64,000 bases of DNA. It comes from an uncultured Holophagales bacterium. Its GTDB lineage: Bacteria; Acidobacteriota; Thermoanaerobaculia; Multivoradales; UBA5704. The translations under genes and the position numbers were made by a program. Below the pieces are notes generated by a model. The model was not told the origin of the DNA and ran no database searches. It saw only the letters and a list, made by a program, of their open reading frames with translations. The DNA is taken from assembly GCA_963842525.1 (NCBI GenBank), contig CAWJGT010000023.1, positions 32,001 through 96,000 of the forward strand, given 5' to 3'. Positions 25,312-47,242 of the stretch are shown here, in pieces (positions within the stretch are counted from its first letter, which is position 1; each line of letters begins with the position of its first letter).

Positions 25312-26805
25312 ATGCTCATGCCCGGTGAGAGCCTCGCATATGTCTGGGACGTCTGGGATCTCCTGTTTCCCAAGGATTCTCCCGCCGCCCTCGCGATCAA
25401 CCGCCTGATCGTGGCGTTCTTCCTGGTCGGAGTCCTGGACGCCCTGGCGGCGATCGGGCTCCTCTTCCGGGAGCGGCGCCGGATCCGCCAAGCCGCGAGC
25501 ACCCTGGAGGCCGCAGGGAGCCGCCGCCCGGCCTTGTCCGTCGAAGCGATCATCAAATTCCTCGGCGTCCCCTCCAACAGCACGGTGGCGCAACGCGCCG
25601 CGCGGGCCTTGCAGCTCCGGACGGCCCGGATGGGGGGCCTCCAGCAGACGACCAGCAGCCATCTCGACCGCTATGGGCTGCTGGCCCGTTATGTCGCCGG
25701 CATCCTGACCCTGATCGGCCTGCTGGGGACCGTCCTCGGCCTGAGCTTCGCGCTGTTCAAGATCCAGGGCGCGCTGATGGGCATCGACGAGGTCGAAAAG
25801 CTCCAGGACCTCACGGAAGCCCTCGGCAGCACGCTGAGCGGGATGAAGACGGCCTTCGCCTGCACCCTGGCCGGCCTCGGCACCTCTCTCCTGCTGTCGC
25901 TGGTCAATCACGCCGTCCGCCGCTTCCAGATCTCGCTGGCGGAGCAGCTCGACGATTTCACCTTCCGCGGCCTGCTCCCCTTTTTCGAAAAGCTGGACCC
26001 GGGAGCCGACCAGGCGACGAAAGCTTTCGTCCAGAAGCTCCAGGATTCGGCCGAGGCACTGGACAAGGTCCGCGAGGCCGTCACCTCCGCTGCCGGGCAG
26101 TATGTGGCAGCAAGCACAGGCTTCGCCGGAGCGGTCGGCAAGCTGGAAGGAATCGTCTCTTCCTTCGAAAAAAGCGTCTCCAGGCTGGCCGACAATCAAC
26201 AAGGCTTCACGCAGACGATGGCCGAAACGCGGGATGCGGTCCGCAATCTGAGCTCGGGGATCGAGACGCACAGCGCACGGCTCACGGGCCTCGCCAACGA
26301 GCACAGCACCGCCCTGCGCGCCTCCTCCGATGTCCTGGTCGACCTGGGGCTCAATCTGGGAGCCCTGTTGGAGAAACAGGCCGTGGCCGACAGCGCCGAG
26401 AGCCATCGCCAGCTCCTCGCAACCCTCCAGGGGTTCCCCGATCATTTCAAGCCCATGCTGGCGGAGCACCAGGGCCAGCTCAAAGCCTTCATCGCGAGCG
26501 TCCTCGAGGAGCTGAAGGGCTCCTCGGCGGCGCTGGCCGCCAGGCTCGACCAGGAGCACCGGGAGAAGGCCGGGGAACAGATGAAGAGCCATGGCAAGGC
26601 GTACGAAGAGGCACTCCGGCGGTCGGTCCAGGAGATGGAAAAGCTCATGAAACAGAGCGAGGAGCGTCTGCGCTCCCTGTTCGAATCCCAGGCCACGGCA
26701 CTGCGAGCGGTCTCGGACATGGCCGTGGACCTCCATCACAACGTAAGCCCGCATTTCGAAAGGAATCTCACCGGCAACGGCCGCCCTGCGGCGCCGGGCC
26801 GGTAG
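25312..26805 (+). CDS. ZorA-like MotA/TolQ/ExbB proton-channel protein with a long cytoplasmic helical tail
   Basis: 3 TMs; GILTLIGLLGTVLGL and GMKTAFACTLAGL channel motifs; ~290-aa heptad-rich C-terminal tail. Confidence 0.8.
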   Translation: MLMPGESLAYVWDVWDLLFPKDSPAALAINRLIVAFFLVGVLDALAAIGLLFRERRRIRQAASTLEAAGSRRPALSVEAIIKFLGVPSNSTVAQRAARALQLRTARMGGLQQTTSSHLDRYGLLARYVAGILTLIGLLGTVLGLSFALFKIQGALMGIDEVEKLQDLTEALGSTLSGMKTAFACTLAGLGTSLLLSLVNHAVRRFQISLAEQLDDFTFRGLLPFFEKLDPGADQATKAFVQKLQDSAEALDKVREAVTSAAGQYVAASTGFAGAVGKLEGIVSSFEKSVSRLADNQQGFTQTMAETRDAVRNLSSGIETHSARLTGLANEHSTALRASSDVLVDLGLNLGALLEKQAVADSAESHRQLLATLQGFPDHFKPMLAEHQGQLKAFIASVLEELKGSSAALAARLDQEHREKAGEQMKSHGKAYEEALRRSVQEMEKLMKQSEERLRSLFESQATALRAVSDMAVDLHHNVSPHFERNLTGNGRPAAPGR

Positions 26806-26814
26806 GAGAGCACC

Positions 26815-27420
26815 ATGGAACGAGGCGATTCCGAAGTGCAGGTGTTTCCCGCTTTTACGGACGTGTTGATGATCGTGATGATCATGCTCGTCTTCTACCT
26901 GTTTGCACAGGCGCTGATTGTCGACCGGTGGGGTAAGGATATCGAGAAGTGCCAACGCGAGATCCGCGAATCCGTCGAAAAGAACGTGCCCGCCGTCCTG
27001 CGCGCGAACATGCAGATCAGCGAGGACGGCAGCATGCAACGCTACACCTTCGCCGACCGGATCCTGTTTGACAGCAGCAAAGCGGACCTGAAGCCCTCCG
27101 GCATGGAGGCATTGAGCGCTCTAGGGCGCACCTTCAAGGAACACGAGAAGACGGTGTTGAGGATCCAGATCGAAGGGCACACCGACAAACGCCCCATTCA
27201 GGGGCAGTTTCCTTCGAACTGGGAGCTGTCGAGCGCCCGTGCCACCTCGGTCGTCCGCTTCCTCCACGATCACTCCAAGCTGGACGCGAAGCTCCTTTCG
27301 GCCACGGGGCTCTCGGAGTTCCATCCGGTCGATCCGGGTGACAGCGAAGAGGCCCTGGCGCGCAACCGTCGCATCGAGGTGGTCGTCATCTGTTCTGTCC
27401 ATTCGGGAAAGCCATCATGA
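26815..27420 (+). CDS. ZorB-like MotB/OmpA-family protein
   Basis: N-terminal TM with conserved Asp (FPAFTDVLM); peptidoglycan-binding OmpA_C motifs IEGHTD, NWELSSARA, NRRIE. Confidence 0.88.
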   Translation: MERGDSEVQVFPAFTDVLMIVMIMLVFYLFAQALIVDRWGKDIEKCQREIRESVEKNVPAVLRANMQISEDGSMQRYTFADRILFDSSKADLKPSGMEALSALGRTFKEHEKTVLRIQIEGHTDKRPIQGQFPSNWELSSARATSVVRFLHDHSKLDAKLLSATGLSEFHPVDPGDSEEALARNRRIEVVVICSVHSGKPS

Positions 27421-29414
27421 CGGAAATCAACGGCTCCCGCCCGCTCTCCGAGATCCTCTCGCCGGAATCGCTCGAAGCTCCGGTCGCAGCCGGCCTGGAA
27501 GCGGCCCTGGGGATGGCGCAGCTCACCCGTTTCCCCGCGGTCCATCCTTCGCACATCGCGCTGGCCCTCCTGAGCGCTGACCAGGGATTCCTCGACACGG
27601 CCCTGCGCAAGCGCTTCGCCGGCCTGCGCGCCGCGACGATCACCGAATCCCTCCTGGAGGTGCTGGAGATCGAGGCCGACCTGACCGGCAGCGCCGCCGG
27701 CAGCCTTCCGGGCGAAGGGCTGCCGGCGCCCGAGCACCTGGCGGCGGAGGCGCAGGCGGTGCTCCGGCGGGCCGGCGAGCTGGCCGCCGGGCGCGGCGCG
27801 GCGCACATCGGTCTCCCCCACCTGATCCGCGCCCTGTTCGAGTCGCCTGAGCGCTTCCTCGCCGAGGCCTTCGGCGATGCCGGAGTGACCCCGGCGGACC
27901 TCCAGGACCTGGCGGAAAAGCTCGACGAAGGCGCGGCGTCGCCAACAAGCGCCTCTCCGCCGGCGGTGTTTGCCGGCGGCCGTCTGGACCTTGCGCTCTT
28001 CGGTCCGCTGGCCAGGGCGGCTCTCCAGGCTCTGGCCCGGGCGGCCGCGGCGCAGCCGGACCCGCCGTTGCGCGACGTCGATCTGTTGATCGGTTTTCTC
28101 GAGCGGGAAGATTCCCGCCTGGTCGCCGCGCTCCACCTGCTGGGCGTCCCGGTGGCCGGCGTCCGCCGCGGCCTCGCCTCCCTTTCGGGCCGTCCCTCCG
28201 CCGCCCGCGGCGCCGCCGAGCTGCCCGAGGAGAGGATCGGCCGGCTGCTGCGCAGGGTGCTCGCCGGCGCGGCGGCCCTGGCCGCAAAGGAAGGGTTTCC
28301 CCTCGTCTCCGAGAGCCATCTCCTGCGTGCGCATCTCGACCGGGTGGCCGAGGGCGGCAACAACCTCTATCAGCGTCTGGGCATCGACACGATCCGCCTG
28401 CGCAGCTACCTCCAGCGCTATCCCGAGGACCGGGCCTCCGAAGAGGCCGGGGAGCGCGCCGAGCCCATCGCGGACATCGAAACCTTTCTCCGCTCGCGCG
28501 TCGTCCATCAGGACCACGCGGTGCGCCGCGTCGTGCCGGCCCTCGCCCGCCTGCGCACCGGCATGGCCGAGGCCGGCCGGCCGATGGGCGTCTTCCTGTT
28601 CCTGGGTCCTTCCGGGGTAGGCAAGACCGAGTTGGCGCGCGCCATCGCCGAGGTGGCCTTCGGCCCCAAGTCCGGCGTCCGCGATCCCTACCTCATCAAG
28701 CTCGACTGCGGCAGCTTCGTCGACAAGCGCGACATCGTCCAGCTCCTCGGCGCCGCCCAGGGGCTGGTCGGCTACAAGGAGGGCCAGCTCACCAACGGGC
28801 TGCGTGAAAAGCCCCGCTCGGTGATCCTGTTCAACGAGGCCGAAAAGGCCGACCCCCACATCTGGCAGAGCCTCCTGCCCCTGTTTGAAGACGGCATCGT
28901 CCGCGAGGCCGACGGCACTGAATATGACGCCACGAGCTGCATCGTGGCGGCGACCTCGAACCTCGGCTACAAGGAGGCCATCCAACAGCTCCGGCTCTGG
29001 GACGTCTCGCCCGAGCAGAGGGTCGAGCTCCAGCCGCAGGTCGAGGACCTCGTCTGGTCGCGGGTCGAGGAGTATTTCTCGCCCGAGTTCCGCAGCCGCT
29101 TCGGACGTCAGAACGTCATCTTCTTTCATCACTTCGATCCCGCGAGCTACGAGCACATGGTCCGCATGCAGGTGGAGAGATTGATCGAAGAGATGGAAGA
29201 GCGCGGCTTCGAGGTCAAGGTTCCGGAGAAGGTCCGGAAATTCCTGGCAAAGCTCGCCTGGGACCTGCGGGAAGAGGGCGCGCGCCCGGTGCGCCGGCTG
29301 ATCACCGAGCATCTCCGCGATCAGATCGTCACGGCCGTCACCGCCGACCCGCGGCGCACCGCCTTCCGTTTCACGGCTCTGGAGGGACGAGGGGAAATCG
29401 TCCTCGAGGGCTGA
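27417..29414 (+). CDS. Clp/Hsp100-like protein: tandem Clp_N-like repeats plus one D2-type AAA+ module
   Basis: HLIRAL and ESHLLRA Clp_N-like repeats; RVVHQDHAV, FLFLGPSGVGKTELA, GLVGYKEGQLT, Walker B variant VILFNEAEKA, FSPEFRSR, GARPVRRLI. Confidence 0.88.
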   Translation: MTEINGSRPLSEILSPESLEAPVAAGLEAALGMAQLTRFPAVHPSHIALALLSADQGFLDTALRKRFAGLRAATITESLLEVLEIEADLTGSAAGSLPGEGLPAPEHLAAEAQAVLRRAGELAAGRGAAHIGLPHLIRALFESPERFLAEAFGDAGVTPADLQDLAEKLDEGAASPTSASPPAVFAGGRLDLALFGPLARAALQALARAAAAQPDPPLRDVDLLIGFLEREDSRLVAALHLLGVPVAGVRRGLASLSGRPSAARGAAELPEERIGRLLRRVLAGAAALAAKEGFPLVSESHLLRAHLDRVAEGGNNLYQRLGIDTIRLRSYLQRYPEDRASEEAGERAEPIADIETFLRSRVVHQDHAVRRVVPALARLRTGMAEAGRPMGVFLFLGPSGVGKTELARAIAEVAFGPKSGVRDPYLIKLDCGSFVDKRDIVQLLGAAQGLVGYKEGQLTNGLREKPRSVILFNEAEKADPHIWQSLLPLFEDGIVREADGTEYDATSCIVAATSNLGYKEAIQQLRLWDVSPEQRVELQPQVEDLVWSRVEEYFSPEFRSRFGRQNVIFFHHFDPASYEHMVRMQVERLIEEMEERGFEVKVPEKVRKFLAKLAWDLREEGARPVRRLITEHLRDQIVTAVTADPRRTAFRFTALEGRGEIVLEG

Positions 29415-29415
29415 G

Positions 29416-30690
29416 ATGGCCGTCTACGAAGACATCCTCGGCTCGCTCGTGGGAGAGCGCTACCGCGTCACCCGGCCGCTGGGGGCGGGCGCCTTCGGCC
29501 AGGTCTTCCTGGCCCAGCACGAGATCTTCGACGTGCCGCTGCGGCCCGTGGCCCTCAAGCTCTTCATCCGGGACTACGTGACGCGCGACAACGCCAGAAA
29601 GGTTTTCAAGGAAGCCCTGCTGCTCGAGTCCCTGGCGGCCGGAGCCCGCAGCCAGGGAGAGGAGACCCACCTGGTGACGGTCTATGAGGCCGGCGTCCTC
29701 AAGGACTACCAGCACATGCCCTACGTCGCCATGGAGTACGTGGACGGCGGCAGCCTCAAGGACCGCTTGGAAAGGGCCCGCCGGTTTCCCTTGCAGACGG
29801 TGATCCGCCACGTCCGCGACATCTGCGCCGGGCTCCGGCTGGCCCACGAGGCGTCGCCGGCGATCATCCACCGGGACCTGAAGCCGGAAAACGTCCTCAT
29901 CACGCACAGCGGCTTCGTCAAGGTCGCCGACTTCGGCGTCGCCATCGACCGCTACGAAGCGTTCCTGGCGGGCGGCACGGCCGGAACGATCACGTATTCG
30001 CCGCCGGAGAGCCGGCAGGACCGGGGAGCCTCACCCGCCTGGGACGTCTATTCGCTCGGCGTCATGATGCTCGAAATGCTCACAGGGGAAAACCCCTTGA
30101 TCCCTGCGCTCCGGAAGGCCAAAGAGGCGGACCGGCCGGTCGAGCGGGAGCTGGATGCGGCCCAGGAGAGGCTCGCCGAGCTCCACGACCCGGCGACCGG
30201 GCGTTCTTTCAACGATCTGATCGAAGAGCTGCGTCTGTGCAAGCCCTGCCAGAAAGTGCTCGCCGGCTGTCTCGCCTGGAGCCCGGCCGCGCGCTATCCG
30301 GACGCCCGAGCCCTGGACGAGGCTCTCCAGGCTTGCGAAACGGGCGGAGTGATCGTCGAGATGATCGAAACGTTCGAGCAGAAGCAGGAGCGGCTGCGTG
30401 GGCTCGCCGGCCAGGCGCGCCGGTTTGGCGACCTCGAACAGGCCCGGCTCCGGCTCGAGGAGGCCCGGTGCGAAAAGCCAAACGATCCGGGCCTCCTGTT
30501 CGAGCTGTCGGAGGTCTACGCCGCCCTGGAGCGCTGGGACGAGGCCATCCGTCTGCAGGAGGAGGGTCTGAAGAGCCGGCGCACCGGGGCAGGCATGCTG
30601 CGCCTGGCCGACCTCTACGACCGGGTGGGCAAACAAGGCCAGGCCAGGACCCTGCGCGGCCTGGCGAAATCCATCGGAAGCAAGGGCTGA
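29416..30690 (+). CDS. cytoplasmic Ser/Thr protein kinase with C-terminal TPRs
   Basis: GAGAFG, VALK, HRDLKPEN, DFG, GTITYSPPE, DVYSLG; TPR-like tail. Confidence 0.93.
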   Translation: MAVYEDILGSLVGERYRVTRPLGAGAFGQVFLAQHEIFDVPLRPVALKLFIRDYVTRDNARKVFKEALLLESLAAGARSQGEETHLVTVYEAGVLKDYQHMPYVAMEYVDGGSLKDRLERARRFPLQTVIRHVRDICAGLRLAHEASPAIIHRDLKPENVLITHSGFVKVADFGVAIDRYEAFLAGGTAGTITYSPPESRQDRGASPAWDVYSLGVMMLEMLTGENPLIPALRKAKEADRPVERELDAAQERLAELHDPATGRSFNDLIEELRLCKPCQKVLAGCLAWSPAARYPDARALDEALQACETGGVIVEMIETFEQKQERLRGLAGQARRFGDLEQARLRLEEARCEKPNDPGLLFELSEVYAALERWDEAIRLQEEGLKSRRTGAGMLRLADLYDRVGKQGQARTLRGLAKSIGSKG

Positions 30691-30704
30691 TCCGGGAGCG
30701 GGAC

Positions 30705-33700
30705 ATGCTCGACCTGAAACCCATCGATCCCTCCGTCTCGCGCTCCCTTCTTGCGCGGTTCAACCCTTTTCAGCCCGGGCTGCACCTGCGCGACAGCATG
30801 CCGGAGGAGATCCTGCAAAAGCCCCTCGATCACCAGGATCTCCTCCGCCAGCACGGCTGGCGCCGGGTGCTTCCCTTCTATGAAGAGGAGCTCTTCCCCG
30901 CCCTGAAGCGCCTGCCTGCGAGCCGCGAGGCCTGGCGGGTCCGCTACGAGATCGGCTGCCGGGCCGTGGCCCTGCGCGCCGCCAACGAGCCTGATGCTCG
31001 CATGACCCGGCTCGCCACGGAGCTGGCCGGCGACCTGGTGTTGGCCCGTTTCGAAGAGAACCCCGCCGGCGACGCGGCGGTGCGCCGCCAGGTGAGGGAT
31101 TTCCTCGCGACGCAGCTCGCCGAAGCGGTCGGCCGGCTGCGCCGCGAAAGAAGAATCGTGGAAGCCTGCCAGGTCTACGAAGCGCTCGAACGGCTGGGAG
31201 GGCTGAGCCCAACTCACCGCACGGAGTACGCCCGGCTGCTCTGGCAGGACCAGGACCGGGGAGGCGCCGCGGCCCTGCCGGTCTACCTGCGCCACCTGAG
31301 CGACCACGGCTGGAACGGCGGACCGGTCACCGGCGAGATGAAGGCTTTCGTCCTGAGCCAGATCGCCATTGACGACCGGACGCCGCAGCACGAGATCCCC
31401 CGGCGCCTGCTGCTCAACCAGTCGGCCCTGTGCTCCCCCAAGGCGCCGGTGGAAGCCGCCCGGCATGCGGGCCTGGCCTACCTCCGCCTGGATCAACCCG
31501 AACGGGCCGTCCCTTACCTGGAGCGGGCCCGATCCGGCAATGGCCACGATCAGGGCGTCGCCGCCTTCCATCTCGGCCAGGCCCTGTTCCGCACCGAGAA
31601 ATTCGATCCGGCCGCGACGGCCTTCGAGCAGGCAGCGCAACAAGGCTACAGCAGCGCACGGATCGAGGCCTGGAAGGGTCTGGCCTACGCCCGGTCGGCC
31701 CGCTGGGAAGAGGCTCTCGCGGCGTTCCGCCAGGCCCAGGCGGACCTCGGCGACATCCAGGAAGGGGACTTCTTCGTCAACTGGGGGCGCGCCGCCTTCC
31801 TGATGAAGGACGTCGAAGACGCCGAGCAGCGTTTCTGCCGCGCGCTCGCCGTGGAGCCGGGCAACGCCCGTGCGGCCCAAGGCCTCGCGATCTGCCTGGA
31901 GCAGCAGGGCCGGAGACCGGAAGCGCACGGCCTGTTGCAGCCCCTCGCGTCCGCCGAGCCGGTCTTCGCTCCGGCCGTCCATCTCCTCGGGCGCCTGCTG
32001 GAGGCGGACGGCCGGCGCGAGGAGGCCCTGGCCTGCTACCGGCAGGCCCTCGCCGCCAACTTCGGCGATCCGGGGTACGCCCTCTCCCTGGGGCTGGCCC
32101 TGGACGAGATGTCGAGCCCCGCGGCCCTCCCCCACCTGGAAGTCGCAGCACAGGACGGCTTGGGCGGACCCGAGGTCGTGCGAAGGATCGTCCTTCTGCG
32201 CTTCCGCCAGGGCGACCGGGACGGGGCCTGGCGCTGGCTCGAATGGCTCCAGAAAGCCGGAGCCCTGCCGGACTCTCTGGCGCGGCTGCGCGCCCGCGAG
32301 CTCGCCACCGAGGCCACCGAAGCCTTCAACGCCGGCCGCTATCCCGACGCCGCCAGGCTCTGGGACGAGGTGAGGACCGCCTGGCCGGACAATCCCCGGG
32401 TCGCCGAAAACCTTTCCAAATCTCTGCTCTGCGACGCTGCCGTCCGCCTCAAGCAAGGCGAGCTGGACGGCCTGTGGGACCAGATCGACCGTGCACACCA
32501 GCTTGCCGAAAGCTTCGAGTCCCGCCTCCTCCTGGCGATCTCGCTCCTCGTGCGGGGCGACCTGTCCGCAGCCCGGGAGCGGCTGGAGACGCTCGCCGCG
32601 GAGCACCCGGAGCACCCGGCCGTTGCGGTCTTCTGCGCCCTCGCCGCCTGTTTCAGCGCCGCAGGGTCCGCCGAAGAGGAGTTGCAGAGCCTCTCCTCCC
32701 TGGCCGGCGAGCTCGTCCCGGCTCCCCTGCTCGCCTTCCTGAAGATCCAGCTCGCGGCCCGCCGCGGCGACTTCGAGGCCGCCGCGCAAGCCGTGGACGT
32801 CTGGGTCGAGGACCCGGAGCCCGTACGCGCCTTGGGCCTTCCACGTTCTCAGGTGAACCTGCTGGTCGCCCACTGCAAGCTCCGCGGCACACGCAGCAGG
32901 AGGCAGCGGGTCGTGCGGTCCCTGGAGGAGCTGACCGCCCGGTACGGCGGGGGCTACTGGGATCTGGGACTGGCCCTGGCCCAGCATCACCTCGCCACCG
33001 CCGCCGGCCTCGCCCGCGCCGGAGAGGCAGATCCAGCCGCGCTGGCGGCCTGTGACGCGGCCTACCGGGCATTTTTGAAAACTGCGTCTGCCGACGAGCG
33101 CGGGCCGGCCCAAAGGAGCCATGCGGAGCTGCTCCAGTTCCTCGCCTGCCATCACCTGCAGCGCGGCGATCTCGGCGCCGCCCTGGAGGCCCTGGAGCGC
33201 CTGAAAGAGCTCGGCGCCGACGCACCCCGTGCGACCGAAAAGCTGCGCAAGGCTCTGACGGCGCGGATGAAGCGTCCCTCCCATGCCAAGGCCTTCTCCC
33301 TTCTCGCGCGAGATCCGGACGGCGCCCGCACCACCTGGAAATCCCTGCTGAAGGAGAACCCGAACGATCTCATCGCGCTCCATCATCTCGCCTGCCTGGC
33401 CTGGTCGCACGCCTGGGACGAGGTGGTCGAAGAGCATTACGAGGCCTCTCTCCCCTACTGGCGCGAAGGGCTGGAGCACTACCGGCAGCTCTACTCCCGC
33501 GACGACTTCTGGGACGGCCTCCGGCAGAAAGGCCAAGCCCTCGGCCAGATGGCAGCCCATCCGTTCCACGAAAAAACCTTCGACGAATGGCGCGCCGCGG
33601 CCCTCTACGAGCTCGCGCACACCCTGATCGACCTGATCTTCCACGTCCTGACCGGCTTCGACTTCGGCAAGCGGCAGACGGCCGTCGATCCGCGCATCCT

Positions 33701-34313: not shown

Positions 34314-34326
34314 CGGGAGACAAACC

Positions 34327-34818
34327 ATGGGACGGATCGACCCGAACAGGAATCCTTGCCGGCACAACATCTTCGATGCCTATGCGATCGACAAATCGGA
34401 GATCGACATCAAGGTCATCCGCGGGGCCTCTCTGAAAGCGAGGGACCAGCTCAAGTTCGGGAAGATCGTAGCGCGGGACGGCGCCGAGCTGCAGTTGACC
34501 GAAGCCGAACTCAACGAGATGGACAAGGTTCTCTTTGATCCCGTGGCGCGGCTCAAGTCTGAGCAATTCGTCCATCAGGCGCATTCCTTCTCTCAGGACG
34601 AAGAGCTAACGGTCTTGGTGCGCCAACTGGAGGAGGCGCGCGATCCCTTACCGGACCTCCTCGCCAAGATCCAGGCGAGGACACTCGCCACCCTCGTGCG
34701 GCAGGTGCTGCCGCAACCCGTACCGCAGCCGCTCGCGGACGACCTGACGCCGGTTGAGCTTGAGCCGCTTGATCTGCAGCTCGAATCGTTGCGGGATGCC
34801 ATTCTGCGGGACCGTTAG
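34327..34818 (+). CDS. putative degenerate J-domain-like protein (no HPD motif)
   Basis: RBS GGGAG; NIFDAYAIDK..IKVIRGA and ELNEMDKVLFDPVAR align by eye with J-domain YEILGV..EIKKAY and EINEAYEVLSDPEKR. Confidence 0.5.
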   Translation: MGRIDPNRNPCRHNIFDAYAIDKSEIDIKVIRGASLKARDQLKFGKIVARDGAELQLTEAELNEMDKVLFDPVARLKSEQFVHQAHSFSQDEELTVLVRQLEEARDPLPDLLAKIQARTLATLVRQVLPQPVPQPLADDLTPVELEPLDLQLESLRDAILRDR

Positions 34819-34840
34819 TTAGTGCTTCGGCGAACCAGGA

Positions 34841-36505: not shown

Positions 36506-36514
36506 GGAAAGACC

Positions 36515-39740: not shown

Positions 39741-39766
39741 GACGCGGGCCGAAGGAGACACATACC

Positions 39767-42268
39767 ATGAAAAGCTGCGGCATCGACCTGGGCACGACCA
39801 ACAGTTGCATCTTCGTCGTGGAGGGCGAGGGCAACCGCCTCATCAGCGACGATCAGGGGAATTCGATCTTCCCTTCCGCCGTCTATATCAGCCGCAACGG
39901 CATGCGGAGCGTGGGGGTGACGGCGCGCAACCGCATGGGCGAGCAGCCGCCGCCGGTGGTCGCGGTCAAGCGGAAGATGGGCTCGACCGAGACGGTCACC
40001 CTGGGTGGCAAGGAATGGACTCCGGTCGAGGTTTCGGCGGCGATCCTCTCCTTCCTCAAGGAACTGGCCGAAACGCAGACCGGCGCGGTGATCGACCGGG
40101 CCGTGGTGACGGTGCCGGCCTATTTCAATCACATCCAGCGGCAGCAGACGGACGAGGCCGGCAAGGCGGCGGGGTTCCGCAAATTGGTCACCCTGCTGGA
40201 GCCGGTCGCCGCCGCCCTGGCCTATTCCCTGGCCAGCGAGCGCGACACGCTGCGGGTGTTCGTCTATGACCTGGGCGGCGGGACCTTCGACGCCACGCTG
40301 CTGGAAAAGGACCCGCAAGGCGGCATCAGCGTCCTGGCGTTCGGCGGCGATCCCTTCCTGGGCGGCGAGGACGTGGACGCCCGGCTCGCCCGCGTGCTCC
40401 TCCAGAAGCTGACCGAGCGGGGCTATCGCCTGGAGCTCGACCTCGGGCACCCGGAAGATGCAAGCCGCTTCCAGCGCCTGAAGTTCTACGCCGAGCTGGC
40501 GAAAAAGGAGCTGTCCGAAAAAGAGGAAGCCAGCCTCGTCCGCCAGGGACTGTTCGAGGACCAGAAGGGTGAGACCGTCGATCTGGACCTCACCGTCACC
40601 CGGCACGAGCTCGAAGCCTGCGCCGAAGACCTGATCCAGCGCAGCATCGACGAGTCCCTGGCGACCCTTGAAAAAGGGGGCGTGCCGCTCTCTTCGCTCG
40701 ACGAGGTCATCCTGGTGGGAGGTATGTCCCGCATGCCGCTGGTGCAGCGCAGGGTCGCCGAGGCTTTTCAAAAGCAGCCCCGGCTGGTGGACCCGGACCT
40801 GATCGTCGCCCGCGGCGCCGCTCTCAAGGCGGCGGAGGTGTTCGGCGAGCAGGCCGTCGCAGGCTCCGGGCTGCGCCTGGAGCTGCACTATGACCGCAAC
40901 ACCGAGCAGGACCGCGTGCGGATCGGCGGCCTGCTCGACCGGCCGCTCTCCGGCCACACCATCTTTCTCCTCGGCGGCCCGGACGAGCTCGTTCAGCCGA
41001 TCGAAGGCACGGACCGCTTCAGCTTCGAGAACGTGCTCCTGGCCCCGGACGCGGAAAACGTTTTCACACTCTCGATCGAAGACGCCCGGGAAAACCTTGT
41101 CCTGGAGCACGAGGTCAGGATCGTCCACAGCGCCTCGGCCCGCCGCATCCTGCGCTCGCCGGGCTCGGTGGTGACGAAACCGATCGCAGTCTGGACGGTC
41201 GACGGCCGCCAGGTGCTGCTGTCGGAGAATACGGCGCTCCCCCACAGCGTGTCCCACACGTTCGAGACGGCCGACCAGGGAGGCCGGATCGTCGTGCCCA
41301 TCTGGGAAGGCAACCACGAGGTCACCCGCATGGAGATCGAAGACATCCCCCGCGACCTCAAGGTCGGCACGCACGTCGTGGTGAGCGTTCAGATTCATTC
41401 CGACTACCGGATCGAGGCCGTGGCCACGGTGCCCGAGATCGAACGCTCGGTGCAGATCGACTTCCGCATCGAGCCGGTGGACACCGCGAAGATCACACCG
41501 GACTTCGTGCGCCGCGAGCTCGCCGCCCTCGAAGAGCAGGCGCGCGCTGCTGAAGCGGAATGCCCCGGCGAAAGAGCGCGCGACATGTTCCGGGTGCAAC
41601 TCACCTCGCTCAAAGACCAGATCGACAAGGAGCTCGAGGAGCCCGAGCCCCAACGGAGCCGGCTCCACGAGAAGCTGAGCGAGATGCGTGCGCTGATCGC
41701 ATCCCTGCCGAAGAAGGACGCGGGCGCTCCGCTCGATCCCGCCTTTGAGGAATTCAGCAGCCGGTTGGCGGACGTTCTGAGCACAGCCATCGAAAATGAG
41801 CATCCCAATCTGCCGCAGGTCCGGCCGCAGATCGAGGCGCTGCGGGAGCGGGCAAAAGAGGTCTGGAAGAGCCGGGATGCCATTGCCTGGCGCCGCGTCC
41901 AGGAGCAGCTCGGGGCCATCGCCAGGAAACTCATGCCGGAGATGAGCCCGGAAGAGAGGGCCCTCCACATGGCGGCATGGTTGATCGTCGACCAGCTCCC
42001 GAGCCTCGAAGCGGCCTCCGGAGGGGCTCTGGCGTCACAGGTCCAGGCGATCCGGAGCGAGATCGAAGAGGTCTTCCTCTCGCTCCAGCTCCTGGGAATG
42101 GACCCGCAGGAGGCGATCCAGAAGCTCCTGACTCTCTATCGGGAAAGCATCCAGCCCCTGCGGCGGAAGCTGGGCCTGGACGCGACCGCCGAGGTCGGAA
42201 TGGCCGATCCCTCGGCTTTGAAAGGTTTTGTACGCGGACGCAAGCCGGCCCTGGAGGGAAGGGCGTGA
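39767..42268 (+). CDS. atypical Hsp70 (DnaK-like) protein B
   Basis: RBS GAAGGAG; GIDLGTTNS, VTVPAYF, LEPVAAA, YDLGGGTFD, ILVGGMSRMP; same architecture as Hsp70 A. Confidence 0.92.
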   Translation: MKSCGIDLGTTNSCIFVVEGEGNRLISDDQGNSIFPSAVYISRNGMRSVGVTARNRMGEQPPPVVAVKRKMGSTETVTLGGKEWTPVEVSAAILSFLKELAETQTGAVIDRAVVTVPAYFNHIQRQQTDEAGKAAGFRKLVTLLEPVAAALAYSLASERDTLRVFVYDLGGGTFDATLLEKDPQGGISVLAFGGDPFLGGEDVDARLARVLLQKLTERGYRLELDLGHPEDASRFQRLKFYAELAKKELSEKEEASLVRQGLFEDQKGETVDLDLTVTRHELEACAEDLIQRSIDESLATLEKGGVPLSSLDEVILVGGMSRMPLVQRRVAEAFQKQPRLVDPDLIVARGAALKAAEVFGEQAVAGSGLRLELHYDRNTEQDRVRIGGLLDRPLSGHTIFLLGGPDELVQPIEGTDRFSFENVLLAPDAENVFTLSIEDARENLVLEHEVRIVHSASARRILRSPGSVVTKPIAVWTVDGRQVLLSENTALPHSVSHTFETADQGGRIVVPIWEGNHEVTRMEIEDIPRDLKVGTHVVVSVQIHSDYRIEAVATVPEIERSVQIDFRIEPVDTAKITPDFVRRELAALEEQARAAEAECPGERARDMFRVQLTSLKDQIDKELEEPEPQRSRLHEKLSEMRALIASLPKKDAGAPLDPAFEEFSSRLADVLSTAIENEHPNLPQVRPQIEALRERAKEVWKSRDAIAWRRVQEQLGAIARKLMPEMSPEERALHMAAWLIVDQLPSLEAASGGALASQVQAIRSEIEEVFLSLQLLGMDPQEAIQKLLTLYRESIQPLRRKLGLDATAEVGMADPSALKGFVRGRKPALEGRA

Positions 42269-42291
42269 CGTTCCGCAAGGAGGGTTGAGCG

Positions 42292-42651
42292 ATGCCTGCA
42301 TGCCCCTACGGTCCACACCGGCTCGTCCTCGACGAGCGCCTGTGCTGCCGCCATTGCGGCGAGGATCTCCGGCTCTACGCCGCTCTGCGCGATCTGCCGG
42401 TGAGCCTCTACAACGAGGCCCGCCGCCTGTGGGAGGAGGCCGCGCTCGTGGAGGCTGCGGCATGGCTCCACGCCGCCCTGGAGCTGCGGGAAGACTTTCC
42501 GGAGGCGCACTGGCTCCTCGCCGCGGTCGAGGCCCGGCAGGGCCGGCCGGAGAGCGCCAGGAGCCGGCTGGTCCGCGCGCGCGCGCTCGGAGCCGAAATC
42601 GATCCGGACTGGATCCCGCTCCCTCTACCCGAGGAGGTCGAGACCTCATGA
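42292..42651 (+). CDS. small zinc-ribbon-like plus TPR protein
   Basis: RBS AGGAGG; CPYGPH...CCRHCG followed by TPR helices (LYNEARRL, ALELREDFPEAHWLLA). Confidence 0.65.
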   Translation: MPACPYGPHRLVLDERLCCRHCGEDLRLYAALRDLPVSLYNEARRLWEEAALVEAAAWLHAALELREDFPEAHWLLAAVEARQGRPESARSRLVRARALGAEIDPDWIPLPLPEEVETS

Positions 42652-44373
42652 GCGTTCTCCTGGAGCCGAAAGCAGCACTGCGCGAATTGATCGTCGGAGC
42701 GGTCGACCGTCTCGACCCGTCCGGCATGGGGAACACCGCGCCAGGAGAAATCCGGCTCCTTCCAGAGCCTGCGGCCAGCACGCTCTCGATCGTGGACAGC
42801 GGCGCCGGCCTGTCCCTGGCGGAGGTGGAGGACCTGCTCGGCAATGCAGGCTCGGATACGGAAGGCTTCTGGGCCGGCCTGCTCGCCTGCCGGCGGCTCT
42901 GCTCCCGCCTGGAGGTCCTGACGCGGGCTTGCGACAGCGGAACCCGCATTCTCTTGACGGAGGACGGCGAGATCCGGATCGGCGCCGCCGAGATCGAGAG
43001 CCCGGGGACCGCAGTGCACCTCCAGCTCTGCCGGGAGCATTCCAGCCTCCTGACCGACGATCTGCTGACGCGACTGATCAAGAAATCCTGCGATTTCGTC
43101 CGCGTCCCCATCTATCTCGGCCGGGGCTGGGATCCGGTCAACCTCATGGACGCGCCCTGGTACCGTGAGATCCCGGACCTTCAGCTCAAGGGAGAGTTGG
43201 ATAGAACCCTTCAGATCCGCACGCTTGCCGCCTTCCCCTTCCAGATCTCCGACAATGCCGGCCCGCGCCTCCGCGGCACCCTCTACATCCGCTCCTGGCG
43301 GCATTCGGCCACTCTGCGCCTCTACTGCCGTCGCGTCTTCGTGGCTGCGGCCGAGGCCGACCTTCTGGGACCGGGGCTTCGTGAGCTGGTATCCGGCGTG
43401 ATCGACGCGGATGCCCCGTCGCGGGCCGAGAGCCGGCAGCTCCTGGAGCCGCGCTCCTCCCAGGGTGCATGGCTTCAATCGGTCCTGCTGCGGATCGTTG
43501 CGCAAGGATTTCTCGGGTTGGCCCGGCAGCGGAGAAAGCAGCTCCAGCAGCTCATGGACGATCACGGTCCGTCCATCAAGGCGGCCTGCCTGGCCTTCCC
43601 TGAAGAGCTGGGTGAGCTGCGCAACCACCTGCCCTACCGCACATCTCTGCGGGACGCCGCCACCCTCCCCGAAATCCTGGAGGGGCGGCCGGAGCGGACG
43701 GTCATCTACGCCGACGACTTCGACATCGCGGCCCCTCTGGTCCCGCTCTACCGCCGGACCAACACCGAGGTCGTTTACATGACGGCGCCGGCCGACGAAA
43801 GGCTCCGGGCGCAGTGGTCGATCGAAAGAGACGGGATCATGTTCCGGCGGGCCGATCTGGAGCCGCCGCTCCCTCCCGCGACCGGTGAGGAAGGTGCGCT
43901 CGCGGGGCGTCTCGAGCACCTGTTCCAAACCTCGATCGATCCCGGGCTCGCCGTCGAGCTCCGCGCACTCAGCCCTGACGCACCGCCCGCGATCCTCTCG
44001 ATATCCGACGAGGGCCGCCGGAAGCTGGAGATGCTCGCGGCGATCCGTTCCCGCCAGCAGCAGGGCCGCACCAACGAGCTGCCGCCGGAGACTCCGGCAT
44101 CTCGCCGAATCGGGAGCACTGGATACGACAACCATCCCCCAGAGGCTCATCCTCAACAGCTCCCATGGGATTGTGGCGCAATGCATCGCTGCCCTCGACG
44201 GGGCCGAGCTTCCTGACGACGGTCCCACGCTCCTTTTCGCCCGCTTCCTGCATGCGCAGGCCCTGCTCTCCGCCGGCTTACACCTCCCCCGCTCGCGAAT
44301 TGCGGAGCTGTCCCGCGCCATGACTGAATTGACGACCAACCTGCTGCCTCAGACCGAAAGGAGTGGAGCATGA
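42648..44373 (+). CDS. degenerate Hsp90/HtpG-like protein; apparent frameshift near 44091
   Basis: ATGA overlap; LRELIVGAVD (N-box Asn missing), DSGAGLS, PGTAVHL, VN...APW, LYCRRVFV; C-terminal LILNSSHGIV is in the shifted frame ending at 44373. Confidence 0.8.
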
Positions 44374-47072
44374 CGCTCAATACAGCGCAGATGGAATCCA
44401 GGTCGATCAACATCAACCTCAAGACGATTCTCCCGTCGCTGGCCAAGAACCTCTACGGCGACGACTGGCGGATCACCATCCGGGAGCTTTTGCAGAACTG
44501 TCACGATGCCATTGCGGAGCGTGCCTTTTGCAATCCCGGCGAGACCGAGGCGGCAAGAATCGACATCTTCCCCGATCCCACGCCCGGCATCTATACCCTG
44601 ACATTCAGGGACAATGGCATCGGCATGACCCTGCAGGAGGTGGAGGACAATCTGGCCACCGTGGGCGGTGATCACAAGAGCACAAAGATCGAGAAGCTTG
44701 CCCAGGCTGGTACGGCAGACCGCTCCGTGCTCGCGCAGCTCATCGGCCAGTACGGGATCGGCTTTCTCTCCTGCTTCATCATTGCGGATTCTGTCGAGGT
44801 GGTGACCCGGAGCCAGGCCGAAACATCGACCGGTGTGCGGGCCGTGTTCACCGGAGAAACCCGTTGGTTTTACAGTGACGAACCCAACGCAGCTCCCGGC
44901 ACCCAGATCACCTTACACCTGAAACGGAACGAAGCGATCCGCGATCCGGCGACGGGCAGGGAGATCCCTTTGCAGGAGCTTCTCAACTTCGAGCGGCTGA
45001 AGCAGGAGGTGCGGCGTTTCGGCGATCTCCTGCCCTATCCGGTCTACGTCCACCGCAGCCCGATGGACATCGCCGGTGATCTCTGCAACACCATGAAGGC
45101 GCCGTGGGAAAACCAGGCACAAGCGAGGGACGAGCTCCTGCGGTTCCTCCGGGACCGCCATCCCGGCGAGAACGAGCCCATATCGCCGATCGCCTTCAAC
45201 CTCGACCGCAACAAGGACAAAGTCAGTGCACAGGGTGTTTTCTATTTTCCCCGTACAGGGCAGGAAGCGAGCCGCTCGTCCGAATCCGTCGCCCAGGTCG
45301 AGCTTTTCTGCCGGCGGATGTTCATCACCCAGGACATCCCGGCCCTCCTGCCAACGTGGGCCAGCTTCGTCTGCGTCGTGGTCGAGTGCCCAGACATCGT
45401 TCCGACATTGAACCGCAACGACGTGATCCGCCACGGCAACGCCTTTGTAGAGCTCAAACATGCCCTGGGCCGCCACATCATCGAAAGCCTGCAGGTCCTG
45501 GCACAGCGCTACCCGAAAGACTTCGCTGATATCCAAGTGGAGCACCGCGAGCGCCTCTACCGCGGCTTCCTCTCCGACTTCAAGAGCACGCCCTCGAGGG
45601 AGGAGCATTTCTTCCGGACGCTCATCGACTACATACCCTTCACGGTTATCGACCGCACGAAGCCGGCTGGCGAGTCCATGACCCTGCGCAGATACCGCGA
45701 CGAATCAAGGAAGCGTAACACCCTGGCGAAGCCAAACGAGCCCACTCGGGATCAGATTTATTATCTGGATGCCTCCGAGGCAACGGGGCAATACAAGGCG
45801 ATGATCATGCAGCGCGACATCCCGGTGATCCTGGCGAATCATCCGGCGGAGCCCAGCCTCCTGCACGCCTACGGTTCTGCCTTCGGAAGCGAGGTCGAGG
45901 TGGAAGATGCGCGGGCGATCCTCAACCTGTACGTGGAGCCGGTCGAGCAGGCGCCTTACGAGGCCATGAAGCAGTTCCTCGCCAGCCTGGATGGCGGCGG
46001 GCCGGACGAGGTGAGCGCATCTCGTTTCGAGCCGAGCTACGTGCCGGCCATCCTGATCGTCAGCTCGGCGAGCTCCCCGGAGAGGGCCGAGGCGCTCGAA
46101 AGGCTTCTGCGGGAAGGAGCCCCCGTCCTCACGGGCAAGGTCCGCAGGATGATGGAAGACGAGATCATGGGCTCACGGACCGGCCGCGCCACGGTCAGCG
46201 CGGTGCTGAACGACAACAATCCGGTTGTGAAAAAAATACGGGACTATTGTGCGGAAGGAAAGCCCCTGACCGGGATCGTCGCCGATGTTCTCCACGAGAT
46301 CTATCATCTCGCCAGGGCATACAGCGACCGGGCCGCGGCGGAAAGCCCACATTTCTACGAGCACAGAAACATCCTTCTGGCCAGACTGCTGGAGACCGAG
46401 CAACAACTTGTCACGGTGCAGAGCGAGCGGGACCTGCTCGTGCTTGAGAAGCGCAAGTCTTTGGAGCCCCCCACTCGTATGGAGGCCCGAACCTGCGCGA
46501 TGCTCCTCACCGACCTGCGCGGTTCCTCCCGGATGGTGGGTTTCCTCGACAGCCTCCAGAGCGCGGAGATCCTGCAACAGTACGCCGGCGATGTCCAGGC
46601 GATCGTGGAAAAGCTCGGTGGAAAGATCGAGAAGTTCACCGGCGACGGCGTCTTCGCCCATTTCGCGCTGGATGGAGCAACCACTAAGGAGGTCATCGAA
46701 AAAGTGTCGGACTGCGCTCTCGAGATTCAGATGTTCACTAAGAAGTTCTTCTCCCGCGGCGAGGTCGCCGAGACGCTTCTCCATGCGGGCGGGATCCTGG
46801 TGGAAGGCTCCCGGACCCTTCTGCACGTGGCGCGGGTCATGTACGGCACGGTTGCCGGAGCTCCCGCCCTGGTGGGCAAGCAGGTCGTCGCCCTCTTCCG
46901 CGCCTGCGATCAGGACGAGCTCTTCGAGCAGTCCCCCATCGTGCTCTCGGAGCCCTTCCTCTTCAGTCTCAACCCCCTGCCCCAGCCGAAGCCGATCGCC
47001 ATGGACATGAAGCTCGACGCGAGCCTGCCGGGCATGAGCTTCTATCCGCACCCCAACTTCGTCCGGCCGTAG
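44370..47072 (+). CDS. Hsp90/HtpG-like GHKL ATPase fused to a class III adenylate/guanylate cyclase domain
   Basis: IRELLQNCHDA, DNGIGMT, IGQYGIGFLS, PGTQITL, LFCRRMFI, LNDNNPVV; coiled coil; then MLLTDLRGSS and IEKFTGDGVFA cyclase motifs. Confidence 0.88.
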   Translation: MTLNTAQMESRSININLKTILPSLAKNLYGDDWRITIRELLQNCHDAIAERAFCNPGETEAARIDIFPDPTPGIYTLTFRDNGIGMTLQEVEDNLATVGGDHKSTKIEKLAQAGTADRSVLAQLIGQYGIGFLSCFIIADSVEVVTRSQAETSTGVRAVFTGETRWFYSDEPNAAPGTQITLHLKRNEAIRDPATGREIPLQELLNFERLKQEVRRFGDLLPYPVYVHRSPMDIAGDLCNTMKAPWENQAQARDELLRFLRDRHPGENEPISPIAFNLDRNKDKVSAQGVFYFPRTGQEASRSSESVAQVELFCRRMFITQDIPALLPTWASFVCVVVECPDIVPTLNRNDVIRHGNAFVELKHALGRHIIESLQVLAQRYPKDFADIQVEHRERLYRGFLSDFKSTPSREEHFFRTLIDYIPFTVIDRTKPAGESMTLRRYRDESRKRNTLAKPNEPTRDQIYYLDASEATGQYKAMIMQRDIPVILANHPAEPSLLHAYGSAFGSEVEVEDARAILNLYVEPVEQAPYEAMKQFLASLDGGGPDEVSASRFEPSYVPAILIVSSASSPERAEALERLLREGAPVLTGKVRRMMEDEIMGSRTGRATVSAVLNDNNPVVKKIRDYCAEGKPLTGIVADVLHEIYHLARAYSDRAAAESPHFYEHRNILLARLLETEQQLVTVQSERDLLVLEKRKSLEPPTRMEARTCAMLLTDLRGSSRMVGFLDSLQSAEILQQYAGDVQAIVEKLGGKIEKFTGDGVFAHFALDGATTKEVIEKVSDCALEIQMFTKKFFSRGEVAETLLHAGGILVEGSRTLLHVARVMYGTVAGAPALVGKQVVALFRACDQDELFEQSPIVLSEPFLFSLNPLPQPKPIAMDMKLDASLPGMSFYPHPNFVRP

Positions 47073-47074
47073 AG

Positions 47075-47135: not shown

Positions 47136-47242
47136 GTTGCTCAAGCCACAGCGGCGAGCCCGCGCGAAAGGGACCATCTTGGAAGGCATGCCGGCATGGC
47201 TCTGTTAGAGTCTCCGGACTGAACGACCATGGAGAGCCACGC

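Follow-up and report, generated by a model that had tools for sequence, protein, structure and literature searches.

Stators of the MotAB/ExbBD type power many non-defence processes (PMC12505986), and in the Zorya defence system a pair of related subunits, ZorAB, acts as the sensor, with the tip of the tail and the ZorB Asp both required for effector recruitment (PMC11946911). Kaur, Burroughs, Iyer and Aravind (eLife 2020, PMC7159879) described the MoxR-vWA ternary and DO-GTPase/GAP1 systems as chaperone-thresholded conflict systems, and a subset of the DO-GTPase/GAP1 systems includes HSP70, GrpE and DnaJ- or TPR-fused proteins (PMC7159879). In a further group, the CoCoNuT type III McrBC systems, an Hsp70-like protein termed CnuD is carried (PMC10542128). 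Here we describe a 14-gene island that combines a stator pair with paralogues of Hsp70, Hsp90 and Hsp100. The island lies at 23188-47072 of a 64,000-nucleotide (nt) stretch (the window; G000:C23:32001-96000) from the genome of an uncultured Holophagales bacterium (9.95 Mb, 34 contigs, 67.8% G+C), and all coordinates without a contig or locus name refer to this window. With moderate confidence, we interpret the island as a large undescribed signalling system, most likely a conflict system of the anti-phage or abortive-infection type, in which a ZorAB-like envelope sensor would act through a chaperone thresholding core on protease and cyclase outputs.

The backbone of the island is a row of 13 plus-strand open reading frames (ORFs) at 25312-47072, at every junction of which the neighbouring genes overlap by 4-7 nt or are separated by 1-23 nt. 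A 14th, divergent gene (23188-25230, minus strand, start codon approximate) encodes a CHAT domain (6.8e-14) joined to an FGE-sulfatase (FGS-type) domain (Pfam, 4.1e-45). This gene belongs to the block, because it adjoins the operon in the genome of a second genus (G934, below) and lies within the stretch that is absent from a same-genus genome (G968); we therefore treat the unit as 14 genes. An earlier, sequence-only reading of this DNA had listed 13 co-oriented, tightly packed genes. Their number and packing are confirmed, and the inventory is amended by the 14th gene, by two frameshifts (near 36780 and 44091) and by the truncated N-terminus of one CHAT protease. The domains it had assigned were likewise recovered with Pfam, PADLOC and NCBIfam, except that its J-like and GrpE-like proteins are not seen by Pfam.

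The region 23188-47072 is a single discrete accessory island of about 24 kb, the 14 genes of which are either all present or all absent. This is evident from G968, in which both flanks of the island are found 147 nt apart, as compared with 24,161 nt in the window genome. Nucleotide similarity to G968 stops at 23105, placing the left edge at 23106-23187, and starts again at 47267, placing the right edge at 47073-47266. The island is also absent from two other genomes of the genus (G967 and G964), with gaps of about 1.6 and 4.2 kb at the corresponding position, and none of the operon proteins has a match at the three same-genus loci examined. Neither a direct nor an inverted repeat of at least 9 nt connects the edges.

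The island is rare. Using the C-terminal half of the first Hsp70 paralogue (Hsp70-1) as the query, we surveyed 300 genomes of the order, including the source genome, and samples of 400 other genomes each from the class and the phylum. Matches were present in three of the 300 genomes of the order, namely the source genome, the orthologue-bearing G934 and a distant variant (G956), and in none of the five other genomes of the same genus. The class sample contained no match at E <= 1e-10 (0/400), and the phylum sample contained no orthologue, three of its 400 genomes having 19-bit matches only. The ZorA-like family is similarly infrequent (2/401 genomes of the phylum sample, the source genome counted), and a scan of viral contigs with the ZorA-like alignment detected no relative.

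Analysis of G934, which belongs to another genus of the same family, demonstrated that all 13 operon genes are present on contig C17 in the same order at 58-87% identity, so that the gene order put forward in the sequence-only reading is conserved beyond the genus. The divergent CHAT-FGE-sulfatase gene has the same position in this genome (66% identity). One end of the block is bordered there by pyruvate dehydrogenase E1, YceI and a Cas1/Cas2 ORF, and the other end by a caspase and a gene of unknown kind; the island thus occupies different genomic locations in the two genomes. The Cas1/Cas2 ORF is a single frame with both domains (L173:3-875) some 6 kb from the island. We also judged linkage of the genes in public assemblies from homologues reporting equal contig sizes. 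ZorA-like, CHAT and Hsp70-1 homologues occur together on contigs of 958,104 nt (equal to C17 of G934) and 244,186 nt, the latter encoding proteins 37%, 41% and 57% identical, respectively, to those of the window. Two shorter contigs link CHAT with ZorA-like (19,552 nt) and Hsp70-1 with CHAT (18,998 nt). A metagenome scan with the CHAT alignment yielded no full orthologous locus; one contig (L088, 42% identity in CHAT) ends before the downstream genes.

Part of the island recurs elsewhere in a smaller form. A scan of genome contigs with the Hsp70-1 alignment returned mostly housekeeping dnaK loci, through universal DnaK motifs, the useful loci being one in Streptomyces litchfieldiae (L074) and four in Myxococcota. 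The Streptomyces locus encodes a two-ring ClpB-like protein, a kinase, proteins of 1021, 149 and 245 residues, a long Hsp70 followed by a small TPR protein of 145 residues, and a convergent CHAT gene. In G956 the arrangement is a TPR protein, an AAA+ protein, a kinase, proteins of 655 and 160 residues, a long Hsp70, a 193-residue protein and, again, a convergent CHAT gene. A metagenomic locus (L089) encodes TPR-CHAT, CHAT-Clp_N and Hsp70-fragment-kinase-CHAT proteins followed by a ClpB-like protein, a kinase and a TPR protein. All three loci share the order AAA+, kinase and large helical or TPR protein, and in the first two the order continues with a protein of about 150-160 residues, the long Hsp70 and the convergent CHAT gene. 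The occurrence of AAA+, kinase, TPR, Hsp70 and CHAT components without ZorAB or Hsp90 points to a stand-alone core, to which ZorAB, a second Hsp70 and the Hsp90 pair would have been added in this clade; ZorAB and the Hsp90 pair, in particular, look like add-ons. That this core is found in metagenomes as well as in a Streptomyces genome suggests that an as yet unnamed family extends more widely.

These findings raise the possibility that two or three independent systems travel together in the island without cooperating, namely a ZorAB unit, the AAA+/kinase/TPR/Hsp70/CHAT core and an Hsp90-cyclase unit. The genomes of L074, L010, L045, L052 and L069 yielded neither a ZorA-like match nor an orthologue of the Hsp90-cyclase, and the two Hsp90 matches in these five genomes are 28% identical and located on other contigs. 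ZorA-like homologues were present on only two of the six contigs of at least 39 kb that carry an Hsp70-1 homologue, and a related ZorAB pair has quite different neighbours. We nevertheless regard a composite as distinctly improbable. Overlaps of 4 nt join the supposed units (ZorB/AAA+ at 27417-27420 and the small zinc-ribbon-TPR gene/Hsp90 at 42648-42651), and there is no convincing internal promoter or terminator: the scans of the island returned one promoter-like site where 1.1 would be expected, and 21 weak terminator-like sites for an expectation of 12.8 ± 3.6, with none convincing between genes. Gene order is kept in G934 at 58-87% identity, the three families still share the 244,186-nt contig at much lower identities, and a ZorAB unit standing alone would be without an effector.

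The first two operon genes encode the stator pair. The A subunit (25312-26805, plus strand, 497 residues) has three hydrophobic helices, after which a C-terminal tail of about 300 residues, likewise helical, runs to a conserved tip. It is matched by 16 PADLOC ZorA models (best ZorA3, 6.9e-13; ZorA1, 1e-10) and scores 20.8 bits against Pfam MotA_ExbB (cut-off 22.9). Seven clear orthologues in the protein database are 34-80% identical, and the second and third transmembrane helices and the C-terminal tip motif are conserved in all eight sequences. An AlphaFold2 model built from these eight sequences is all-helical, with helices over residues 162-484 and a mean predicted local distance difference test (pLDDT) score of 55. 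The B subunit (26815-27420, plus strand; PADLOC ZorB1 2.2e-19, Pfam OmpA 3.4e-16) has the features of ZorB, a single N-terminal transmembrane helix carrying Asp16 and an OmpA-type peptidoglycan-binding domain. Residues P12, A13 and D16 are invariant in the three aligned sequences, and the best sequence matches in the PDB are the peptidoglycan-binding domains of MotB and PomB. ZorA and ZorB were the sole PADLOC families matching these two genes, in line with the at most partial hits that had been anticipated. A flagellar or gliding stator was considered and rejected, there being no motility genes nearby and the best library matches of the B subunit being ZorB models.

Two relatives of the stator pair were seen in other settings. 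A metagenomic contig (L114:11539-19550, minus strand) encodes a row consisting of a TIR protein, a ZorA-like protein of 408 residues, a ZorB-like protein, two unknown proteins and a STAND NTPase. Its ZorAB-like pair is 31-33% identical to that of the island, and the row may represent another ZorAB-type system with new partners. The neighbours of a further ZorAB-like relative, in G022, were uninformative.

Downstream of the stator genes lies a Clp_N domain joined to a single AAA+ module of the ClpB-D2 type, an Hsp100 paralogue (27417-29414, plus strand; AAA_2 5.7e-32, ClpB_D2-small 9.3e-10, Clp_N 3.6e-8). Its PADLOC matches include PDC-M37B (1.9e-24) and DolB (1.6e-16), and its Walker A motif is conserved. 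The pore loop reads GLVGY here and in G934, compared with G-Y-[LV]-G-Y in three relatives, and this lack of the pore-loop Tyr argues against a threading unfoldase in this clade. The next gene encodes a Ser/Thr protein kinase with C-terminal TPRs (29416-30690, plus strand; Pkinase 6.3e-37, TPR_19 4.3e-6), in which the catalytic motifs VALK, HRDLKPEN and DFG, read directly from the sequence, are intact and conserved in G934. PADLOC matches of the kinase include mad6 and PD-T4-6. It is followed by a giant TPR/helical scaffold protein of 1202 residues (30705-34313, plus strand; TPR_16 2.1e-16, TPR_19 4.5e-15 and others over residues 250-700), which is 74% identical over residues 1-1201 in G934. 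A second, small TPR protein, of 119 residues (42292-42651, plus strand), has a Cys-rich, zinc-ribbon-like N-terminus, the Cys pattern of which was read from the sequence, and TPR matches that fall below the cut-offs (TPR_11 4.3e-5, TPR_19 5.6e-5).

Two long Hsp70 paralogues are encoded side by side. Hsp70-1 (37071-39740, plus strand, 889 residues; HSP70 1.7e-64) has a DnaK-type nucleotide-binding domain with an insert, followed by a non-canonical C-terminal half of about 470 residues for which the protein database holds 13 homologues; the whole protein is 81% identical in G934, and its extreme C-terminus (...V-D/E-W) is conserved. Matches to DnaK structures in the PDB are confined to residues 2-227 and 292-419, which correspond to the nucleotide-binding domain. 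Hsp70-2 (39734-42268, plus strand, 844 residues; HSP70 3.8e-84) has the same build and is 36% identical to Hsp70-1. No canonical substrate-binding domain was detected in either protein, the Pfam HSP70 matches ending at profile positions 375-381 of 599, and the motifs of the nucleotide-binding domains look intact. The Hsp70s of the Streptomyces locus and of G956 score higher against Hsp70-2 than against Hsp70-1, and on these scores Hsp70-2 is the paralogue closer to the single Hsp70 of the core-only variants.

The putative partners of these Hsp70s are less clearly recognizable, and the labels 'J-like' and 'GrpE-like' are weak. The 163-residue protein encoded at 34327-34818 (plus strand) may be a degenerate J-domain without HPD, on the basis of weak remote similarity. 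It has no Pfam, PADLOC or NCBIfam match. An hhalign comparison with the genome's own J-domains gave a probability of 25% (E 7.8e-4) in the full J-domain register, without HPD, and a search of the ESM Atlas placed at rank 18 (score 0.83) a cluster with DnaJ in 39% of its members. The protein is 69% identical to its orthologue in G934, aligns with its positional counterpart in G956 at a pairwise E of 0.003, and, when predicted alone with AlphaFold2, gave a model of pLDDT 42, too low for use. The GrpE-like gene (36515-37074, plus strand) is split into two frames in the window (36515-36805 and 36856-37074). Its 186-residue read-through product scores above shuffled sequences in alignment with the housekeeping GrpE (z = 5.0; 0/300 shuffles reach the score) and does not align to a second GrpE-like ORF on contig C3.

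The chaperone genes of the island were also considered as a housekeeping set; this was rejected, because the dnaK operon of the genome lies elsewhere, on contig C32. Outside that operon we observed a third Hsp70 set (L182, G000:C3:170817-175175), all within 5 kb, with a GrpE C-terminal-domain match (6.2e-13), an Hsp70 nucleotide-binding domain (171095-172219) and a short J-domain ORF with PPE in place of HPD. Separately, an identical 147-nt stretch with the same weak GrpE-profile score (10 bits) is found in 17 places in the source genome (e.g. C1:39254-39400 and C25:494291-494437), within ORFs mostly of 250, 470 or 480 residues, and looks like part of a multi-copy element such as an insertion sequence.

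Of the two CHAT proteases, the divergent one is described above. The other, within the operon (34841-36505, plus strand, 554 residues; CHAT 1.1e-24), carries a kinase remnant in front of the protease domain. In six of six aligned sequences the catalytic loop HRDLKPEN is replaced by HGAIAxEK, for which reason we call this domain a pseudokinase, and the protease residues His410 and Cys453 are invariant in the same number. The protein database holds five clear orthologues. The window protein is shorter at its N-terminus than four of its orthologues (817-864 residues) and than the open frame of up to 931 residues in G934. The absent part, of about 320 residues, comprises the kinase N-lobe and a segment that, in G934, is 47% identical to residues 205-357 of Hsp70-1. 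At the metagenomic core-only locus (L089:5674-11197) we observed a CHAT-Clp_N fusion of 800 residues and an Hsp70-fragment-kinase-CHAT fusion of 1061 residues. Together with the Hsp70-1-like N-terminus of the G934 protein, these fusions indicate that the proteases bear pieces of the system's own chaperones.

The operon ends with a pair of Hsp90 paralogues. Gene 12 (42648-44373, plus strand) is degenerate: its match to PF00183 (2.6e-4, 20.5 bits) is below the cut-off of 24.4, no HATPase_c match was obtained in Pfam, and the alignment has a 23-residue gap at the position of the GQYGIGF box. It is 24-25% identical to the neighbouring Hsp90. Gene 13 (44370-47072, plus strand, 900 residues) encodes an HtpG-like Hsp90 (NCBIfam HtpG 3.8e-59, residues 10-665; HATPase_c_3 1e-7) fused to a class III nucleotide cyclase. 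Its HtpG score of 200.7 bits is below the equivalog cut-off of 371, and we therefore class it as an Hsp90 paralogue and not as HtpG itself. The ATP-binding boxes (E-N-D / DNGIGM / GQYGIGF) are intact and conserved in G934. The cyclase domain is matched by PADLOC PycC models (9.1e-11 to 7.8e-3) over residues 698-799 only and by CyaC in the PDB (1wc1, 1.1e-5), with both metal-binding Asp residues (D715 and D759) aligned and conserved in G934.

Three features of these genes could be taken as signs that the operon is a decaying relic that no longer works in this genome, namely the two frame changes, the loss of about 320 N-terminal residues from the operon CHAT protein, and the Walker B motif of the AAA+ protein (28863-28865), which reads N-E in the window and D-E in G934, with the Asp also present in three relatives. 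This explanation appears very improbable to us. The GrpE-like gene, which shifts frame near 36780, lies in one frame in G934 (75% identity), and a 343-nt contig of the soil sequencing run X1, otherwise identical to the window, has one extra C behind 36780 that restores a single ORF of 186 residues ending at 37074. Gene 12 changes frame near 44091, and the part that is split there is continuous in G934; contigs of run X1 do not span 43766-44122. G934 has five frame changes of its own (in the AAA+, Hsp70-2, zinc-ribbon-TPR, degenerate Hsp90 and Hsp90-cyclase genes), all at positions where the window shows no break. Since the frame changes are not shared and the genes affected here are continuous in G934, this is a pattern of indel errors and not of shared decay, and the two window frameshifts are probably assembly errors. 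All other catalytic motifs are intact, and the Walker B Asn may be either a real change or a base error. The source genome also contains two full 16S ribosomal RNA (rRNA) genes 6.5 kb apart (G000:C1:527562-535631), indicating tandem rRNA operons, which, with single-base frame errors, fit a long-read assembly.

Returning to the interpretation of the island as a conflict system, we propose that the ZorA-like and ZorB-like subunits would form a peptidoglycan-anchored, ion-driven stator, the helical ZorA-like tail of which may, by analogy with Zorya (PMC11946911), signal to the cytoplasm that the envelope has been perturbed. The sequence-only reading had the motor feed a chaperone machine that restrains or assembles a caspase-like protease and a cyclic-nucleotide producer; it is supported in part, for the composition, the lack of ZorC-G matches and the conserved gene order, and the feeding and restraint are putative. 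The signal would pass to an ATP-dependent thresholding core made up of the ClpB-like AAA+ protein, the active Ser/Thr kinase-TPR protein, the giant TPR scaffold and the long Hsp70s with their J-like and GrpE-like partners, joined in this clade by one degenerate and one putatively active Hsp90 paralogue. This core is predicted to hold the outputs, two CHAT (caspase-like) proteases and the Hsp90-fused cyclase, silent until the trigger; gating would be the task of the chaperone paralogues, with TPR proteins as their scaffold and the kinase adjusting them. We infer such gating because the core recurs and because the proteases carry copies of chaperone domains, and it matches the 'grammar' of chaperone-thresholded conflict systems (PMC7159879). 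The pseudokinase, Hsp70-like and Clp_N pieces on the CHAT proteases may be integral decoys or docking sites at which the kinase and chaperones of the same system would bind, and the second protease is fused to an FGE-sulfatase-type binding domain. Once released, proteolysis and the cyclic nucleotide would stop growth or kill the cell through targets and a nucleotide receptor encoded outside the island. The defence-type PADLOC matches of the island include ZorA and ZorB for the stator, mad6 and PD-T4-6 for the kinase, PDC-M37B and DolB for the AAA+ protein and PycC for the cyclase.

A number of observations weigh against this interpretation. With respect to the sensor, the A subunit scores 23.8 bits against the curated NCBIfam models ZorA_1 and ZorA_2, for which the cut-offs are 190 and 100, and its family profile gave no match to solved ZorA sequences at E <= 1. 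In a Foldseek search with its low-confidence model, ExbB was ranked first (8.4e-4), the ZorA structures 8qyk and 8qyd were ranked 16 and 18, and TolQ was also matched. On sequence and model, the A subunit is a member of the 5:2-stator family, but not demonstrably a ZorA. The earlier designation of the pair as Zorya-like is thus upheld by the PADLOC matches and as an analogy, and not as membership, because the A subunit is inseparable from ExbB/TolQ by sequence and fold. With respect to the core, a DnaJ profile found six places in the genome, none of them in the window; HPD was not seen in the 163-residue protein or its three positional counterparts; and the Pfam GrpE profile had no match in the window, though the housekeeping and extra copies were found elsewhere in the genome. 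With respect to the outputs, solved cyclases align over the first 66 residues of the cyclase domain only, which renders cyclase activity uncertain, Pfam assigned none of the 14 genes to a cyclic nucleotide monophosphate (cNMP)-binding family that could act as a receptor, and none of them is an obvious killing effector. Finally, the island has no edge repeats and no adjacent integrase, no transfer RNA gene was found anywhere in the window, the G+C content of the operon is ordinary (65.4%, with 12% of 1863 same-length genome windows equally low or lower), and PADLOC analysis of seven flank ORFs returned generic caspase, TPR and subtilase models only, with no recognized defence system.

The stator and private chaperones might instead form a non-defence signalling or proteostasis module. 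Acting by phosphorylation, by limited proteolysis and through a cyclic nucleotide, such a module would control development, exopolysaccharide, motility or the response to envelope stress, much like the regulators of social bacteria that are built from Hsp70 paralogues and GrpE homologues. In Myxococcus, exopolysaccharide and motility are under the control of Hsp70 paralogues acting with a GrpE homologue, so non-defence roles for Hsp70 paralogues exist. The source genome is rich in eukaryote-like signalling (58 tblastn matches of the operon kinase at E <= 1e-6), and an FHA-sigma54 activator, a SpoIIE phosphatase, an extracytoplasmic function (ECF) sigma/anti-sigma pair with a TPR-CHAT protein, and caspases are found near the island. 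The further non-housekeeping GrpE/Hsp70/DnaJ cluster on C3, the many non-defence processes driven by MotAB/ExbBD-type stators (PMC12505986) and the absence of a known flanking defence system could be read in the same way. A regulator of a lineage trait would, however, be expected in close relatives, whereas the island is missing from five of five same-genus genomes (with a clean empty site) and occurs in one of the 299 other genomes of the order, and at another genomic place in G934. The PADLOC ZorA/B and PycC matches and the TIR and STAND neighbours of the related ZorAB pair likewise point to conflict systems. On balance we consider a non-defence role rather unlikely.

We also advance a more specific and speculative proposal, which is unlikely as a whole. 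Under this proposal a bacterial Hsp70-Hsp90-Hsp100-TPR relay would serve as an immune switch, triggered mechanically by a proton-driven, cell-wall-anchored rotor. Private chaperones would keep the kinase, the pseudokinase-caspase-like protease and the Hsp90-cyclase primed in a client-like state, with the Hsp70 lobe or Clp_N domain of the proteases as docking or decoy modules. The eukaryotic HSP70-HOP(TPR)-HSP90 relay serves kinase and nucleotide-binding leucine-rich-repeat (NLR) clients. HSP90/HSP70-dependent activation of kinases and NLRs would have its prokaryotic equivalent in the island, whether through analogy or through shared ancestry, and the island would belong to a new AAA+/kinase/TPR/Hsp70/CHAT family spanning several phyla. 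Should the island prove to be an immune system, as favoured above, ZorAB-type sensors would be swappable front ends, chaperone paralogues would become signal-processing parts of bacterial immunity, and the gating of kinases and death proteases by chaperones could be studied in a tractable bacterial model. Its biology is unusual even without a role in defence, since private paralogues of Hsp70, Hsp90 and Hsp100 are brought together in a mobile operon of 14 genes.

The genes around the island are of mixed character. In the window it is flanked by DUF2071 and an isocitrate/isopropylmalate dehydrogenase-family gene on one side and by an M28 peptidase on the other. A caspase (Peptidase_C14; 49029-51296, minus strand) lies a few kb away; the caspase near the island of G934 (L174:16623-17462) is on the opposite side, and the two are 30% identical. 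Genes for an ECF sigma factor and a zf-HC2 anti-sigma factor immediately precede that of a TPR-CHAT protein (52942-57549, minus strand; CHAT 1.5e-69), and a single protein of the metagenomic contig L114 fuses zf-HC2, TPR and CHAT. To the left of the island, a weak NACHT-like P-loop ORF (11555-12658; E 9.1e-4, below the cut-off) follows a HAMP-SpoIIE phosphatase (9481-11589), and the FHA-sigma54 activator and a 940-residue kinase-TPR protein are nearby.

Comparison with described systems places the island outside Zorya types I-III, Pycsar, the MoxR-vWA and DO-GTPase systems and the housekeeping chaperones. As in Zorya, an operon of soluble proteins opens with a MotA/ExbB-type A subunit that has a long, predicted helical tail, and next comes a B subunit that combines the conserved transmembrane Asp with binding to peptidoglycan through a dedicated domain. 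The island differs in that none of the ZorC, D, E, F and G models matched the 12 operon proteins scanned in PADLOC (the GrpE-like ORFs being left out), as the sequence-only reading had stated. The A subunit, with its 497 residues and tail of about 300, is far below the curated ZorA cut-offs and has a fold inseparable from ExbB, and the island core exists without ZorAB. The known Zorya motors pass their signal to nucleases, whereas the soluble partners here are paralogues of all three major ATP-dependent chaperone families, a kinase, a pseudokinase, two caspase-like proteases and a cyclase. With no type-specific partners present and ZorA scores that fall short of the curated cut-offs, we place the island outside Zorya types I-III.

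The systems of Kaur and colleagues share with the island an NTPase chaperone switch combined with caspase-like peptidases, cNMP cyclases, inactive kinase domains, FGS binding domains and TPRs, and most island components fall within these component classes (PMC7159879). The cores of those systems are absent, there being no MoxR, vWA or GTPase in the Pfam results for the island, while GAP1 has no model in the libraries used, and we therefore do not assign the island to the MoxR-vWA or DO-GTPase systems. The terms 'Hsp90' and 'MotA' do not occur in the main text of that paper, supplements aside (PMC7159879). The best defence-library matches of the island cyclase domain are the PycC models of Pycsar, with both metal-binding Asp residues present; here, however, the domain shares one protein with a full Hsp90, Pfam detected no cNMP-binding effector in the island, and for lack of this receptor-effector the island is not a Pycsar system. 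CoCoNuT provides a parallel in its non-canonical Hsp70-like ATPase with helical repeats, set in a predicted defence operon (PMC10542128). The island differs in having no McrB, McrC or nuclease, and the CoCoNuT Hsp70-like domain is thought to bind RNA and has degenerate Walker motifs (PMC10542128), whereas the corresponding motifs of the island Hsp70s look intact. The AAA+ protein connects the island to Dodola and PDC-M37 through DolB and PDC-M37B, with no DolA or M37A among the families listed for the island proteins (for the kinase, the best 25 of 35).

With the canonical chaperones DnaK-DnaJ-GrpE, HtpG and ClpB, the island has in common the Hsp70 nucleotide-binding domain, the GHKL and middle domains of Hsp90 and the ClpB D2 module. 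It departs from them in having an AAA+ protein of one ring module that lacks the pore-loop Tyr, no HPD J-domain, no detectable Hsp70 substrate-binding domain, and chaperones that all score below the NCBIfam equivalog cut-offs. By analogy, the joint encoding of Hsp70, Hsp90, TPR adaptors, a kinase and a pseudokinase recalls the eukaryotic HSP70-HOP(TPR)-HSP90 relay. No described system and no motility or secretion locus was matched in PADLOC, NCBIfam or Pfam, and no described system of this composition, or of its core, was found in the full-text literature, with subscription journals and supplements outside that scope; this bears out the view, already taken from the sequence, that the composition is undescribed. 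Judged by its gene content, the island therefore appears to be new as a system, with a front end of a known kind and a predicted function.

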